NCBI RefSeq assembly: GCF_051903065.1
Contig: NZ_CP178438.1
Reading direction: 5' to 3' (one strand)
Source: Escherichia coli
Lineage (GTDB): Bacteria > Pseudomonadota > Gammaproteobacteria > Enterobacterales > Enterobacteriaceae
DNA length: 64,000 nt
Below, in pieces: positions 1,524 through 63,049 of the stretch (position 1 is its first letter; each line of letters opens with the position of its first letter). A program made the translations under genes and the position numbers. The notes beneath the pieces are model-generated. The model was not told the DNA's origin and did not search any database. It saw only the letters and a program-made list of their open reading frames with translations.

Positions 1524-2120
1524 ATGGCAGAAAAACAAACTGCGAAAAGGAACCGTCGCGAGGAAATACTTCAGTCTCTGGCGCTGATGCTGGAATCCAG
1601 CGATGGAAGCCAACGTATCACGACGGCAAAACTGGCCGCCTCTGTCGGCGTTTCCGAAGCGGCACTGTATCGCCACTTCCCCAGTAAGACCCGCATGTTC
1701 GATAGCCTGATTGAGTTTATCGAAGATAGCCTGATTACTCGCATCAATCTGATTCTGAAAGATGAGAAAGACACCACAGCGCGCCTGCGTCTGATTGTGT
1801 TGCTGCTTCTCGGTTTTGGTGAGCGTAATCCTGGCCTGACCCGCATCCTCACTGGTCATGCGCTAATGTTTGAACAGGATCGCCTGCAAGGGCGCATCAA
1901 CCAGCTGTTCGAGCGTATTGAAGCGCAGCTGCGCCAGGTATTGCGTGAAAAGAGAATGCGTGAGGGTGAAGGTTACACCACCGATGAAACCCTGCTGGCA
2001 AGCCAGATCCTGGCCTTCTGTGAAGGTATGCTGTCACGTTTTGTCCGCAGCGAATTTAAATACCGCCCGACGGATGATTTTGACGCCCGCTGGCCGCTAA
2101 TTGCCGCGCAGTTGCAGTAA
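1524..2120 (+). CDS. slmA: Nucleoid occlusion factor SlmA (TetR family)
   Basis: Translation from ATG at 1524 ([17 protein letters not shown]...) matches SlmA/Ttk; the longer ORF from 1482 is an upstream extension. Confidence 0.93.
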
Positions 2121-2125
2121 TATGA

Positions 2126-2149
2126 CGCCGGATGAATTTTCATCCGGCG
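2126..2149. terminator. Hairpin between convergent slmA and pyrE (cgccggatgaattttcatccggcg), likely bidirectional terminator
   Basis: Perfect inverted repeat with short loop read in sequence; lies between two convergent stop codons. Confidence 0.5.
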
Positions 2150-2156
2150 AGTTTCT

Positions 2157-2798
2157 TTAAACGCCAAACTCTTCGCGATAGGCCTTAACCGCCGCCAGAT
2201 GTTCCGCCATTTCCGGCTTCTCTTCCAGGTAAGCAATCAGATCTTTCAGGGTGATGATAGAGATCACTTTGCAGTTGTAATCACGCTCAACTTCCTGAAT
2301 CGCCGAAATCTCGCCGCGCCCCCGTTCCTGACGATCGAGCGAAATCAACACGCCAGCAAGCGTCGCGCCATTGGCCTGAATAATTTCCATCGACTCACGA
2401 ATCGCCGTTCCGGCGGTGATCACATCATCTACCAGCATTACGCGTCCTTGTAACGCGCTACCAACCAGATTGCCGCCTTCACCGTGGTCTTTTGCCTCTT
2501 TGCGGTTAAAGCAGTACGGCAGGTCCAGGTCATGATGCTCCGCCAACGCCACGGCGGTTGTGGTGGCAATCGGGATCCCTTTGTAAGCAGGGCCAAACAG
2601 CAGATCGAACTCAATGCCGGAGTCCACCAATGCTTCAGCGTAAAAACGGCCTAACAGTGCCAGGTCGCGCCCGGTATTAAACAGCCCGGCGTTGAAGAAA
2701 TAGGGGCTTTTACGCCCGGATTTCAGCGTAAACTCGCCAAACTTTAACACCTGCTTGCTAAGCGCAAATTCAATAAACTGGCGCTGATATGGTTTCAT
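2157..2798 (-). CDS. pyrE: Orotate phosphoribosyltransferase
   Basis: 213 aa from [15 protein letters not shown]...; start codon complement at 2796-2798; ORF-track upstream extension rejected. Confidence 0.95.
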
Positions 2799-2830
2799 GC
2801 CTTCGCTCCTCATCTTACTTTTCTACAGAC

Positions 2831-2854
2831 AAAAAAAAGCGACTCATCAGTCGC
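2831..2854 (-). promoter_or_regulatory. pyrE attenuator (hairpin gcgactgatgagtcgc followed by U8 on the transcribed strand) in the rph-pyrE intercistronic region
   Basis: Inverted repeat plus A8 run on the + strand (T-run on the - strand) between rph stop and pyrE start; matches the known UTP-sensitive attenuator position. Confidence 0.7.
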
Positions 2855-2862
2855 CTTAAAAA

Positions 2863-3579
2863 TCAGTTTGCCAGCGCCGCCTTCTGCGTCGCTACAATGG
2901 ATTCGATTCCCCCTCGGGCCAGCGCCAACAAGGTGAGTAGCTCTTCATGGGTGAACGGCTCGCCTTCTGCCGTCCCCTGCACTTCAATGATGCGCCCGTC
3001 TTCGGTCATCACTACGTTCATGTCGGTCTCTGCGGCAGAGTCTTCAACGTATTCCAGATCGCAAACCGCTTCGCCGTTCACAATCCCGACAGAAACCGCG
3101 GCTACCATCCCTTTCATCGGGTTGGTTTTCAGCTTGCCGTTTTCCACCAGCTTCTGTAGCGCATCTGCCAGCGCCACACAGGCACCCGTAATCGAAGCGG
3201 TACGCGTGCCACCATCAGCCTGAAGCACGTCGCAGTCCAGCGTAATGGTGAACTCACCCAGCGCTTTCAAATCTACTGCCGCGCGAAGCGCACGGGCGAT
3301 CAGACGCTGGATTTCCATTGTGCGTCCACCCTGCTTACCTTTCGCCGCTTCACGAGCGTTACGGGTGTGGGTAGAACGTGGCAGCATGCCGTACTCTGCG
3401 GTGATCCAGCCCTGGCCCTGACCTTTCAGGAAGCGCGGCACGCCTTCTTCAATAGAGGCGGTACACAACACTTTGGTATCGCCAAATTCGACCAGCACCG
3501 AGCCTTCTGCATGTTTTGTATAGTTACGAGTCAGGGTAACGGGACGCACCTGATTATTGCTACGGCCTGCTGGACGCAT
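2863..3579 (-). CDS. rph: Ribonuclease PH, full length (238 aa)
   Basis: Translation [26 protein letters not shown]...[11 protein letters not shown] is uninterrupted to the native C-terminus. Confidence 0.95.
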
Positions 3580-3705
3580 ATTGAAATCTCCGGCTTGAAA
3601 CAAATGTGGCTGCGCATTATACGGACTTCCGGCGGTTATTCCTATCCTGACAAGGCATCGATGGCTATAATCCTTCCACCTCTCCTTTTATAAACAGGAA
3701 CGTCT

Positions 3706-4569
3706 ATGATCCGCAGTATGACCGCCTACGCCCGGCGTGAAATCAAGGGTGAATGGGGGAGCGCAACCTGGGAAATGCGCTCGGTAAACCAGCGTTATCT
3801 GGAAACTTACTTTCGTCTGCCGGAGCAGTTCCGTAGCCTTGAACCTGTCGTTCGCGAGCGTATTCGTTCTCGCCTGACGCGCGGTAAAGTGGAATGTACC
3901 CTGCGCTATGAGCCAGATGTTAGCGCGCAAGGTGAGCTGATCCTCAACGAAAAACTGGCTAAACAGCTGGTAACTGCCGCGAACTGGGTAAAAATGCAGA
4001 GTGACGAAGGGGAAATCAACCCGGTTGATATTCTACGCTGGCCGGGCGTGATGGCAGCCCAGGAGCAGGATCTTGACGCCATTGCCGCTGAAATTCTCGC
4101 GGCGCTGGATGGTACGCTGGACGACTTTATTGTCGCGCGCGAAACCGAAGGTCAGGCACTGAAAGCATTGATCGAGCAGCGTCTGGAAGGCGTCACCGCC
4201 GAAGTGGTCAAAGTCCGCTCCCATATGCCGGAAATCCTGCAATGGCAGCGTGAACGCTTGGTCGCGAAGCTGGAAGATGCTCAGGTTCAGTTGGAAAACA
4301 ACCGTCTGGAGCAGGAGTTGGTTCTGCTGGCACAACGAATTGACGTTGCCGAAGAACTGGACCGCCTCGAAGCGCATGTCAAAGAGACCTACAACATTCT
4401 GAAGAAAAAAGAAGCCGTTGGTCGTCGTCTGGACTTTATGATGCAGGAGTTCAACCGCGAGTCGAACACTCTTGCGTCGAAGTCTATCAATGCCGAAGTG
4501 ACAAACTCCGCGATTGAGCTGAAAGTGTTGATTGAGCAGATGCGCGAGCAGATTCAGAATATTGAATAA
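3706..4569 (+). CDS. yicC: YicC family stress-induced protein
   Basis: 287 aa ORF MIRSMTAYARREIKGEWGSATWEMRSVNQRYLE... matches YicC. Confidence 0.93.
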   Translation: MIRSMTAYARREIKGEWGSATWEMRSVNQRYLETYFRLPEQFRSLEPVVRERIRSRLTRGKVECTLRYEPDVSAQGELILNEKLAKQLVTAANWVKMQSDEGEINPVDILRWPGVMAAQEQDLDAIAAEILAALDGTLDDFIVARETEGQALKALIEQRLEGVTAEVVKVRSHMPEILQWQRERLVAKLEDAQVQLENNRLEQELVLLAQRIDVAEELDRLEAHVKETYNILKKKEAVGRRLDFMMQEFNRESNTLASKSINAEVTNSAIELKVLIEQMREQIQNIE

Positions 4570-23251: not shown

Positions 23252-23346
23252 GGAAGATCGTCGTCTCCGGTGAGGCGGCTGGACTTCAAATCCAGTTGGG
23301 GCCGCCAGCGGTCCCGGGCAGGTTCGACTCCTGTGATCTTCCGCCA
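23252..23346 (+). tRNA. selC: tRNA-Sec (selenocysteine tRNA, UCA anticodon)
   Basis: 95 nt sequence GGAAGATCGTCGTCTCCGGTGAGGCGGCTGGACTTCAAATCCAGTTGGGGCCGCCAGCGGTCCCGGGCAGGTTCGACTCCTGTGATCTTCCGCCA read directly; matches E. coli selC. Confidence 0.97.
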
Positions 23347-23645
23347 GTTTACCTCTTCTGAACTCTCCCAATGTCAATAAATCTCTTCTAATCCCTTGTA
23401 TATCAGTATTTATTTGTATCCAGAGGTCAACCTACTTCACCCCGTATCAAGTTTCTTTTGGGGGTACTTTAGGGGGTGTTATTTCCTATTGAAATACCAG
23501 CACCCCCATAATAGGAAAAATGTGATATATAACAACGGCTTTTAACAACATCTTTGTTATACAAGGGGTGTATTGGGGGTATCAGGTTAGTTACTGGCAG
23601 AAATCCCCCTCAGGAACATGAATTCATCAAAAGCCGGAGGATGTC

Positions 23646-24422
23646 ATGGCATTAACCGATATCAAAGTGAAAACCGCAAAACCCAAAGACAAACCCTATA
23701 AGCTTGCTGATGGCGGCGGTATGTATCTACTGATTAACACTAATGGTTCTAAATACTGGCGCATGAAGTACCGCTTTGCTGGTAAAGAAAAGATGCTTTC
23801 TATTGGCGTATACCCCGATGTAACGCTAGCCGATGCTCGCGAGAAACGCAGTGAAGCCAGGAAACTCCTCGCTGCTGGAGGCGATCCAGGGGAGGCAAAA
23901 AAGGAAGAAAAAATCGCGCAGCAAATGAGTCTGCAAAATACGTTCGAGGCTATTGCTCGCGAATGGCACCAGTCAAAAGCCGATCGGTGGTCATTACGCT
24001 ATCGTGATGAAATCATTGATACCTTTGAAAAAGACATTTTTCCCTACATTGGCAAGCGCCCTATTGCCGAAATCAAACCAATGGAGTTACTGGAAGCACT
24101 GCGTAAAATGGAAAAACGTGGAGCTCTGGAGAAAATGCGCAAGGTCCGCCAGCGCTGTGGTGAGGTGTTCCGCTATGCAATTGTTACTGGCCGGGCAGAC
24201 TATAACCCAGCCCCCGATCTTGCCAGTGCTTTAGCTACACCGAAAAAAGTACATTTTCCCTTTCTTACTGCTAATGAACTTCCCCACTTCCTCAACGATC
24301 TGGCGGGTTATACCGGAAGTATAATCACTAAGACAGCTACTCAGATCATTATGTTAACCGGCGTACGAACACAAGAACTGCGTTTTGCACGCTGGGAAGA
24401 TATCGATTTTGAGACAAAATTG
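23646..24422 (+). pseudogene. P4-type (tyrosine recombinase) integrase, N-terminal about 259 codons only; truncated by IS insertion
   Basis: MALTDIKVKTAKPKDKPYKLADGGGMYLLINTNGSKYWRMKYRFAGKEKMLSIGVYPDV... is a typical P4-like integrase N-terminus; reading frame runs into the IS inverted repeat and stops; catalytic C-terminal half is absent. Confidence 0.85.
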
Positions 24423-25479
24423 GGCTTTGTTGAATAAATCGAACTTTTGCTGAGTTGAAGGATCAGATCACGTATCTTCCCGACAACGCAGACCGTTCCG
24501 TGGCAAAGCAAAAGTTCAAAATCACCAACTGGCCCACCTACAATAAAGCCCTCATCAACCGTGGCTCCATAACTTTCTGGCTGGATGATGAAGCTATTCA
24601 GGCCTGGTATGAGTCAGCAACACCTTCTTCACGAGGCAGACCTCAGCGCTATTCTGACCTTGCCATCACGACTGTGCTGGTCATTAAACGCGTATTCAGG
24701 CTGACCCTGCGCGCTGCGCAGGGCTTTATTGATTCCATTTTTTCTCTGATGAACGTTCCGCTACGCTGCCCGGATTACAGCTGTGTCAGCAGGCGGGCAA
24801 AGTCGGTTAATGTCAGTTTCAAAACGCCCACCCGGGGTGAAATCGCACACCTGGTAATTGATTCCACCGGGCTGAAGGTCTTCGGTGAAGGCGAGTGGAA
24901 AGTCAAAAAGCATGGCCAGGAACGCCGCCGTATCTGGCGTAAGCTGCATCTCGCCGTTGACAGTAAAACACATGAAATCATCTGCGCTGACCTGTCGCTG
25001 AACAACGTTACGGACTCAGAGGCCTTCCCCGGGTTAATCCGGCAAACCCACCGGAAAATCAGGTCAGCCGCCGCCGATGGCGCTTACGATACCCGGCTAT
25101 GTCACGATGAACTGCGGCGTAAGAAAATCAGCGCGCTTATCCCTCCCCGAAAAGGTGCGGGTTACTGGCCCGGTGAATATGCAGACCGTAACCGTGCAGT
25201 GGCTAATCAGCGAATGACCGGGAGTAATGCGCGGTGGAAATGGACAACAGATTACAACCGTCGCTCGATAGCGGAAACGGCGATGTACCGGGTAAAACAG
25301 CTGTTCGGGGGTTCACTGACACTGCGTGACTACGATGGTCAGGTTGCAGAGGCTATGGCCCTGGTACGAGCGCTGAACAAAATGACGAAAGCAGGTATGC
25401 CTGAAAGCGTGCGTATTGCCTGAAAACACAACCCGCTACGGGGGAGACTTACCCGAAATCTGATTTATTCAACAAAGCC
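24423..25479 (+). mobile_element. IS903-like insertion sequence (IS5 family), 1057 bp with 18 bp terminal inverted repeats
   Basis: Left end GGCTTTGTTGAATAAATC at 24423-24440 and its exact inverse GATTTATTCAACAAAGCC at 25462-25479; single DDE transposase ORF inside. Confidence 0.88.
24500..25423 (+). CDS. IS903-family DDE transposase
   Basis: ORF ...AKQKFKITNWPTYNKALINRGSITFWLDDEAIQAWYESATPSSRGRPQRYSDLAITTVL... with DDE-type motifs (DSTGLKV, ADGAYDT); start uncertain (GTG at 24500 or upstream TTG at 24455). Confidence 0.85.
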   Translation: MAKQKFKITNWPTYNKALINRGSITFWLDDEAIQAWYESATPSSRGRPQRYSDLAITTVLVIKRVFRLTLRAAQGFIDSIFSLMNVPLRCPDYSCVSRRAKSVNVSFKTPTRGEIAHLVIDSTGLKVFGEGEWKVKKHGQERRRIWRKLHLAVDSKTHEIICADLSLNNVTDSEAFPGLIRQTHRKIRSAAADGAYDTRLCHDELRRKKISALIPPRKGAGYWPGEYADRNRAVANQRMTGSNARWKWTTDYNRRSIAETAMYRVKQLFGGSLTLRDYDGQVAEAMALVRALNKMTKAGMPESVRIA

Positions 25480-25767
25480 GGATTTCATCTGAACAACGGC
25501 CCACAGGCCGATCGACTTGCCGACCTGGAAAGAATGCTGCATCTGTTCAGCGGCAAACCGATCCCCGACAACCGGGAAAACATCACTATTCATCTGAATG
25601 AGCACATCCGGTCTGTTCAGGGTAAAGAGTGCTATGAAGATGAAATGTTCAGCATCAGATACTTTAAGAAGGGCTCCGCGCACATCACGTTCAGGAAACC
25701 AGAACTGGTTGATCGGCTAAATGATATTATAGCCAGACACTATCCGGAAATGTTACCTTCACAATAG
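25480..25767 (+). pseudogene. Orphan 3' fragment of an unidentified island gene, open from the IS edge (C-terminal 95 codons)
   Basis: Frame is open from the first base after the IS right end (GFHLNNGPQADRLADLERMLHLFSGKPIPDNRENITIHLNEHIRSVQGKECYEDEMFSIRYFKKGSAHITFRKPELVDRLNDIIARHYPEMLPSQ*); no upstream start or RBS context; family not recognised. Confidence 0.4.
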
Positions 25768-25899
25768 AGTACTAAGAATTGATTCAATTATGTATTTTAG
25801 CTTCATTCCTTCATGCAAAATCATTTGGGGGTTCTTATGGGGGTTACTCATTTATCCAACACATACAAATTATTTAAGATCAATGCATTAATACTTATA

Positions 25900-42724: not shown

Positions 42725-42865
42725 AAAAAACCCCGCCGGAGCGAGGTTTCGTCAGTCGCCTGCGGCTGGTAACCGCAAAGCACACTGTATTATGTCAACA
42801 CTGAAAGTATACGTGTTCCGCGCAGAACGCGCAATTTCGGCACGAATTTTGACGTATTTAGTGCA
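42725..42865 (-). ncRNA. istR: IstR antitoxin sRNA (IstR-1/IstR-2), approximate boundaries
   Basis: Minus-strand terminator (stem ccucgc/gcgggg with tetraloop, then U6) at 42725-42746; 20 nt element at 42781-42800 that repeats in the tisAB leader; LexA box just upstream; boundaries inferred, not measured. Confidence 0.5.
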
Positions 42866-49890: not shown

Positions 49891-53719
<3,829 letters not shown>

Positions 53720-53864
53720 TTCCACATCCTCTTTTCTCAATTCTGTAAGTAGGAAGCCTGATTGGTTATGCGGCAGGCCTGGAGCGAGGATAGGAAGATG
53801 CGATCGGCAGAACATGACGACCCAATGGGATTCGTGATCGCTTTCATGCTTTTCGTTGGGCGGT

Positions 53865-53898
53865 AGAGATCTACGTTTTCGCGAAAAAGTAGACCTCT
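53865..53898. promoter_or_regulatory. 34 bp near-perfect palindrome agagatctacgttttcgcgaaaaagtagacctct in the glvC-yidP divergent intergenic region (candidate operator)
   Basis: Reverse complement differs at 4 of 34 positions; centred on the perfectly palindromic core ttttcgcgaaaa; sits between divergent glv operon and GntR-family yidP. Confidence 0.45.
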
Positions 53899-54014
53899 GT
53901 GAGCACAGGTACACAGCATCGAACACATCTTTAAAAATAAGATGTTTTTTCAATCGATTAAGCAGAACTTGTGGGCGCATTACCCGGGCTTGCAGGCAAA
54001 AAAGAGATCTAGAG

Positions 54015-57125: not shown

Positions 57126-57539
57126 TTAGTTGATTTCGATACGGCGCGGTTTTTTCGCTTCCGGAATCACGCGTTCGAGATCGATATACAGCAAACCATT
57201 TACCAGGTTAGCGCCACGAACATGAATGTTCTCAGCTAACTGGAATTTGCGTTCAAAGTTGCGTTCAGCGATGCCCTGGTACAGATAGGTGCGCTCTTTT
57301 TGTTCGTCGGCGTGAGCACCTTTCACCACCAGCAGATTATCCTGGGCGGTAATTTCCAGTTCGCTCTCAGCAAAACCAGCCACAGCGATAGCAATGCGGT
57401 AATGGTTTTCGTCTACCAGTTCAACGTTATACGGAGGGTAGCCGCCATTACTCTGGCTCTGGTTGTTTTCTAAGTGGTTAAACAAACGGTCAAATCCAAT
57501 AGCAGAACGGTAAAGCGGGGATAAATCAAAGTTACGCAT
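57126..57539 (-). CDS. ibpA: Small heat shock protein IbpA
   Basis: 137 aa [56 protein letters not shown]... Confidence 0.95.
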
Positions 57540-57844
57540 AATCAATAGCTCCTGAAATCAGCGAGAATGTAAGACCTTCCACAATGGACAGGTCAGGTAG
57601 CCAGAACACCCATCAGGCGCGTCCTCATCGGCTACGATGTAAAAATGGGTCTGGAAATGAACTTTTCAAGCCTTATCAGCGGACTTTTTTTTGCAGTTTA
57701 TGGTCTATTGCATAGACTGAGGGGGCAGCACGAAACGTTAAAGTGCGATAGCCGCCACAGTGCGACGTAATGATGATGTTATTTTCAGCAAGGGATCGCT
57801 ATAACTCATCAGGCCAACACCCACGATCAACAGATGAATTTATT

Positions 57845-60558: not shown

Positions 60559-60668
60559 CCAACGCGCTTCACATCGCCCACCAGCAGGATGTAAGAGAGC
60601 GCGCCAATCAACGCGACGGCGGAGATATAAACCAGTGCCGGGGCAAAGCCATAGCCTTGCAACAGATA
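60555..60668 (-). pseudogene. dgoT: 3'-terminal remnant (about 37 codons) of D-galactonate transporter gene dgoT; rest of dgo operon absent
   Basis: Minus-strand translation [37 protein letters not shown] matches the C-terminus of DgoT as recalled; an in-frame stop immediately precedes it; its stop codon overlaps the cbrA stop. Confidence 0.6.
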
Positions 60669-62950: not shown

Positions 62951-63049
62951 GCCGGATGCGGCGTGAACGCCTTATCCGGCCTACAAAATCATGCAAAATC
63001 AATATATTGCAGGAGTCTCGTAGGCTTGATAAGCGTAGCGCATCAGGCA
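62951..63049. repeat. BIME: two REP elements in inverted orientation downstream of gyrB
   Basis: gccggatgcggcgtgaacgccttatccggcctac (62951-62984) and taggcttgataagcgtagcgcatcaggca (63021-63049) resemble REP consensus. Confidence 0.75.

Follow-up and report, generated by a model that had tools for sequence, protein, structure and literature searches.

The window, by which we mean the whole stretch of Escherichia coli DNA analysed (64,000 nt), carries the rph-pyrE operon. The two genes are co-oriented and separated by an intercistronic spacer of 64 nt, within which lies the pyrE attenuator. The features of the locus, in the order in which they would be transcribed, are the following:

3579..2863, minus strand: rph, encoding ribonuclease PH (RNase PH); an uninterrupted open reading frame (ORF) of 717 nt, 238 aa plus TGA
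2909..2913, minus strand: rph-1 site, a G5 run on the gene strand (CCCCC on the plus strand), placed by alignment with MG1655
2863..2865, minus strand: native rph stop codon TGA, 5 nt ahead of the attenuator hairpin
2831..2857, minus strand: pyrE attenuator (intrinsic terminator), AAGGCGAC-TGATGA-GTCGC followed by T8, from a terminator scan and folds
2157..2798, minus strand: pyrE, encoding orotate phosphoribosyltransferase, 213 aa (TIGR00336, 240.6 bits; annotation)

In the list of ORFs with their translations, rph starts with an ATG at 3579 and ends with the TGA at 2865-2863, and its product has the C-terminus ...ATQKAALAN. The protein matches TIGR01966, the NCBIfam equivalog model for RNase PH, with 380.8 bits (curated cut-off, 141.5 bits) over model positions 1-235 of 236, and its residues 2-237 align with the crystal-structure chain of Pseudomonas aeruginosa RNase PH (PDB 1r6l; E = 4e-104). 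The latter alignment takes in a 13-residue segment and the C-terminal helix, with residues 208-237 pairing with 209-238 of 1r6l_A (239 residues), and hence the segment lost in rph-1 is present. The P. aeruginosa enzyme is an orthologue from another genus and is used here only to show that the C-terminus of the window protein is native. Taken together, the model match and the alignment identify a real, complete gene and exclude a chance ORF, and, judged from its sequence, the window rph is a complete ribonuclease PH gene. The initial annotation had described a full-length rph of 238 aa ending in ...ATQKAALAN at 2863-3579, with which the ORF and both protein comparisons agree; its coordinates are exact, and the strand, which it left unstated, is minus. 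In the near-identical genome of strain 23CRST027, PGAP places rph and pyrE at identical coordinates, and the rph protein is WP_001247093.1. The rph+ protein of K-12 (WP_001247096.1; UniProt P0CG18 as named in PMC11148124) likewise has 238 aa and the C-terminus ATQKAALAN, and differs from the window protein at residue 138 (Ala in the window, Val in K-12) and residue 216 (Thr in the window, Ile in K-12). The operon layout is also common to the two, with the TGA located 5 nt ahead of the attenuator in both, and the pyrE protein of the window shows zero amino-acid differences from that of MG1655.

In MG1655 (NC_000913.3), rph is annotated as a ‘truncated RNase PH’ of 687 nt. A global alignment of window positions 2100-3750 with the MG1655 locus contains 25 substitutions and two single-base indels, the first of which is in the rph-1 G-run and the second within the rph-pyrE terminator. 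At the rph-1 site, the gene-strand sequence is CCCGAGGGGGAATC for the window and CCCGAGGGGAATC for MG1655, that is, GGGGG versus GGGG; the locus and the genes on either side are the same. In the MG1655 allele, the frame shifts after residue 223 and runs into a premature TAG, giving a 228-aa product that ends in ...ARGESNPL. Pairwise alignment with MG1655 was the check proposed in the initial annotation for its claim that the rph-1 frameshift is absent, and the count of five G against four bears the claim out; at base level, this alignment revealed no K-12 4-G run and no other disruption of rph or pyrE. Both MG1655 and its sibling W3110 carry rph-1 (PMC11148124, also citing Jensen 1993), as stated in that annotation; the alignment presented here confirms this for MG1655, while for W3110 it is taken from the literature only (PMC11148124). 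Among matching complete E. coli genomes in RefSeq, a biased sample, the 5-G allele was found as an exact match in 5,169 of 5,423 (~95%) and the 4-G allele in 168 of 5,420, using 59-60-nt queries centred on the run, so that genomes with other SNPs inside the query fall into neither class. Full-length rph is clearly the default state of the species. Its presence in the window is therefore of little weight, and the lack of it in MG1655 and W3110 is a textbook example of a laboratory artefact.

From the intact rph, it had further been inferred that the strain does not belong to a standard K-12 lineage. This inference is invalid, as many K-12 laboratory strains are rph+: PGAP annotates the 717-nt rph (WP_001247096.1) in the K-12 strains DH5alpha, AB1157, MC1000 and ER1709, and JM83, JM109 and XL1-Blue are listed as rph+ in a genome paper on classical cloning strains (PMC11148124), whereas rph of HMS174 is frameshifted as in MG1655. 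The rph status alone is thus unfit for distinguishing K-12 from non-K-12 strains. The conclusion itself nevertheless holds, on the grounds of sequence divergence. An origin of the window from an rph+ K-12 laboratory derivative of the DH5alpha/AB1157/MC1000 type would be in line with the existence of such strains and with a gene order that is collinear with that of MG1655, but it is extremely improbable: in the rph+ K-12 strains checked, the one-base gap is the sole difference from MG1655 (0 substitutions over 1,857 nt), whereas 25 SNPs in 1.86 kb at the locus separate the window from each of the K-12 sequences checked. Over the full 64 kb, identity to MG1655 is 98.1-99.5%, with ~577 mismatches and three structural differences; the window has an additional element next to selC and an intact glv locus and has lost the dgo operon (see below). 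The same DNA is found, save for three differences over the 64 kb (blastn: 2 SNPs, 1 indel), in 23CRST027, a clinical isolate from human faeces in Ecuador. An rph+ K-12 origin was rejected on the mismatch counts against MG1655, both at the locus and over 64 kb, and it is because of this divergence from every K-12 sequence checked that we regard the window as non-K-12.

The second indel concerns the attenuator. According to the terminator scan, its hairpin occupies 2857-2836, and the T-run extends down to 2831. On the gene strand, the window reads TGA-TTTTT-AAGGCGAC-TGATGA-GTCGC-TTTTTTTT-G, starting with the rph stop codon, whereas MG1655 and the rph+ K-12 strains read ...GTCGCC-TTTTTTTT-G. Relative to K-12 and to other enterobacteria, one C of the 3′ arm is absent between 2839 and 2838 (GTCGC-TTTTTTTT in the window versus GTCGCCTTTTTTTT in K-12), and the hairpin departs from the consensus attenuator hairpin, GGCGACTGATGAGTCGCC, in that its 3′ arm reads GTCGC. 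In this single-C form, a G-C pair is replaced by G-U and the free U-tail is shortened from 6 to 5. The window hairpin has 9 pairs, a z-score of -3.3 against shuffled sequences and keeps five U, with calculated folding energies of -14.9 kcal/mol versus -16.9 kcal/mol for the CC form in a 49-50-nt context, -11.6 versus -14.3 kcal/mol for the hairpin alone (~2.7 kcal/mol weaker) and -8.4 versus -11.7 kcal/mol for the GC core. The distance from the rph stop codon to AAGGCGAC is 5 nt (7 nt to GGCGAC), in the window as in DH5alpha, whereas stop codon and hairpin are 34 nt apart in MG1655, the premature TAG of which lies farther upstream. The attenuator had been described as intact, which is correct for the hairpin, the U-run and the 5-nt spacing from the stop codon, but not for the 3′ arm with its missing C. 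Rfam gave zero matches at 2700-3750 at E <= 1, with no attenuator family for pyrE, and its gathering-level matches in the 64-kb window likewise include none for a pyrE attenuator. When the region was scanned for the sigma-70 consensus, nothing promoter-like came up ahead of rph, and the one site inside pyrE is no better than those in shuffled sequences; the rph-yicC intergenic region is the same as in MG1655 (zero differences, 3290 to 3750).

The missing C adjoins the T8 run, an indel-prone context, and a sequencing or assembly error beside a homopolymer could produce the same pattern. Such an error is, however, hardly credible here. The single-C attenuator (56 nt) is present as an exact match in 487 complete E. 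coli genomes (~9%) from many laboratories, and all the genomes sampled have it linked to one and the same SNP haplotype; a sequencing artefact was rejected on these two grounds. The CC form is found as an exact match in 4,581 of 5,410 complete E. coli genomes. To place the two forms, a DNA pattern accepting either allele was run against one genome per species, a scan that detects only hairpins with a 5′ arm and loop identical to those of E. coli and leaves others unsampled. The 23 enterobacterial species representatives in which the hairpin was located between rph and pyrE all have CC or CCC and none (0/23) has a single C. They come from seven genera, namely Escherichia (including E. albertii), Citrobacter, Enterobacter, Leclercia, Pseudocitrobacter, Silvania and Kosakonia; one unclassified Enterobacteriaceae genome is likewise among the 23, and one of the 23 records is titled Chryseobacterium yet is enterobacterial in context. 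Four more pattern matches (Marinomonas and a Cyclobacteriaceae metagenome-assembled genome) have unrelated flanks and were set aside as chance terminators. With CC or CCC in all 23 representatives, the single-C form is, on this comparative evidence, derived within E. coli.

Five carriers of the single-C allele were taken at even steps along the match list; their sources are chicken, swine, raw milk, human and one unknown. Over the homologous ~4.2 kb, they show 0-5 differences from the window and about 53 from MG1655, and in at least 40 further genomes the identity to the window is 100% over 1,651 nt. The presence of one haplotype in all of these genomes points to a single origin of the allele on that haplotype, which is about 1.4% divergent from K-12. 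A recurrent origin finds no support, all sampled carriers being on the haplotype of the window, although the sample is small (5 plus at least 40).

The possible consequences of the missing base follow from the way in which pyrE is regulated. Transcription reaches pyrE from rph by reading through a UTP-sensitive attenuator (as cited in PMC2784333, PMC11148124, PMC6941894 and PMC5933015), and a ribosome that reaches the natural rph stop codon close behind RNA polymerase hinders formation of the hairpin, resulting in read-through (PMC2784333, PMC11148124). In rph-1 strains, the ribosome halts ~30 nt early, which leads to more termination and to under-expression of pyrE (PMC2784333, PMC11148124), and growth is restored by mutations that move the stop codon nearer to the hairpin (an 82-bp deletion) or damage the terminator (as cited in PMC2784333, PMC11148124, PMC6941894 and PMC5933015). 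In the latter class, the mutation pyrE(G-41ΔG terminator) is reported from at least three populations of evolved MG1655 (rph-1) in the supplement of Knöppel et al. 2018 (PMC5933015), where pyrE(G-42C terminator) and pyrE(A-33ΔA in polyU in terminator) are listed as further parallel mutations. The authors suggest that these terminator mutations ‘putatively’ raise attenuator read-through and thereby ease a leaky pyrimidine requirement (PMC5933015); judging from the text, pyrE(G-41ΔG) is not among the mutations that they reconstructed (PMC5933015).

When the MG1655 sequence is numbered from the ATG of pyrE, positions -40 to -33 form the T-run, and -41 and -42 are the two C of GTCGCC. These read G on the plus strand of the genome, in accord with the published nomenclature, including ‘A-33 in polyU’. 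Since deletion of either the -41 or the -42 base yields the window sequence, the natural allele corresponds to the laboratory-selected mutation, and the attenuator allele of the window is, base for base, identical to pyrE(G-41ΔG terminator), with the same resulting hairpin (GTCGC then T8). The two differ in background and history: pyrE(G-41ΔG) of evolved MG1655 arose de novo as a compensatory change in an rph-1 background, whereas the single C of the window occurs naturally, together with rph+, and belongs to a distinct haplotype found in ~9% of complete genomes. In the literature searched, we found no description of this natural allele, which is the only, and a mildly, new element of the locus.

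In our view, the locus is very probably an ordinary rph-pyrE operon, wild-type in both genes, from an E. coli outside the K-12 lineage, with a single-C attenuator that is predicted to be weaker. With the rph stop codon 5 nt ahead of the hairpin, the coupling geometry is wild-type, and, the position of the ribosome relative to the hairpin being native in the window, coupling should work. The change from G-C to G-U and the loss of one free U predict a weaker terminator; with G-U in place of G-C and a U-tail of 5, it would fall below the consensus in strength. Such a terminator would be expected to allow a higher basal read-through into pyrE than in rph+ strains with the consensus attenuator, and also to narrow the range of UTP control as compared with those strains. 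The predicted state is thus one of normal coupling geometry and a leakier attenuator. The ‘normal pyrE coupling’ expected in the initial annotation is supported as far as geometry is concerned, given the position of the stop codon, but is doubtful with regard to regulation, given the weaker, derived terminator allele. The effect on termination could be small, as the hairpin is stable by its z-score and five U are kept.

At the far end of this range, the attenuator of this rph+ strain would be functionally normal, with the single C being neutral and pyrE controlled as in consensus rph+ strains. A hairpin with 9 pairs and a U-run still forms, the spacing from the stop codon is native and an allele present in 487 genomes from many hosts is clearly not harmful, all of which such neutrality would explain. 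We nonetheless consider it unlikely, because the deleted C is invariant (as CC or CCC) across the 23 species representatives and seven genera, the calculated loss of stability amounts to 2-3.3 kcal/mol and selection in rph-1 MG1655 brought up the same deletion as well as one in the U-run and a substitution at the neighbouring C (PMC5933015). The selection of three terminator mutations in MG1655 indicates that the base pair matters for termination. That the allele has persisted in a lineage both large and ecologically diverse is as compatible with near-neutrality as with benefit.

Returning to the weaker attenuator, we tentatively propose, at somewhat less than an even chance, that a one-base deletion in a deeply conserved hairpin, carried on one haplotype (~9% of genomes), may partly uncouple pyrE from UTP control in rph+ strains. 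If true, the regulation of pyrimidine biosynthesis would be naturally polymorphic in this respect. For studies of pyrimidine or nucleotide physiology in this lineage, and in the ~9% of genomes with the allele, pyrE regulation of the K-12 wild type should not be assumed, and this caution is advised because the terminator lesion is one selected in evolution experiments to raise pyrE.

Two other genomes show changes of their own at this locus. In ER1709 (NZ_CP030240.1), an rph+ K-12 derivative, the attenuator reads GTCGCC followed by seven T, not eight, which is the same change as in the evolved pyrE(A-33ΔA in polyU) (PMC5933015) and may reflect either a true secondary mutation or a sequencing error in the homopolymer. 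In PEC399 (NZ_CM168011.1), an E. coli strain from swine, the rph-pyrE match is in two pieces spanning 2,723 bp and overlaps an annotated ISApl1 (IS30-family) transposase, which suggests that an IS has inserted into the operon or next to it.

Elsewhere in the window, the structural differences from MG1655 and the matches to known RNAs involve the following features:

23252-23346: tRNA-Sec gene selC
42725-42854, minus strand: istR, next to tisB (Rfam, gathering level)
57533-57605, minus strand: ROSE_2 thermometer upstream of ibpA (Rfam, gathering level)
62985-63027, plus strand: ES036 sRNA (Rfam, gathering level)

Directly after selC, positions 23347-25899 make up ~2.55 kb that are extra relative to MG1655 and delimited by a 24-bp repeat of the 3′ end of selC. 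This DNA contains a truncated tyrosine integrase (23646-24422), an IS903B-like element of the IS5 family and DUF4942 and rhuM fragments, and is, on account of the truncated integrase, the IS element and the gene fragments, a decayed island at selC, a classic site of integration. The exact structure is present in only 2 of 5,426 genomes. In the window, the reading frame of the transposase is open (24455-25423); in 23CRST027 it is frameshifted by annotation, and the sole indel between the two sequences is at 25027. The glv locus (50781-53980) is intact, encoding a 440-aa 6-phospho-alpha-glucosidase and an undivided PTS component, and includes ~490 bp (51011-51502) that are missing from MG1655. 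MG1655 has a glvG pseudogene and a split between glvB and glvC, and the window is therefore without this second K-12-specific lesion. The dgo operon (dgoT, dgoD, dgoA, dgoK and dgoR; 4.75 kb at 3870544-3875296 in MG1655) is missing at window positions 60660-60662, where a 114-nt fragment adjoining cbrA, annotated as an incomplete hypothetical protein, is its remnant. The loss of the operon predicts that the strain cannot use D-galactonate. The matches to istR, ROSE_2 and ES036 are all expected at these E. coli loci.
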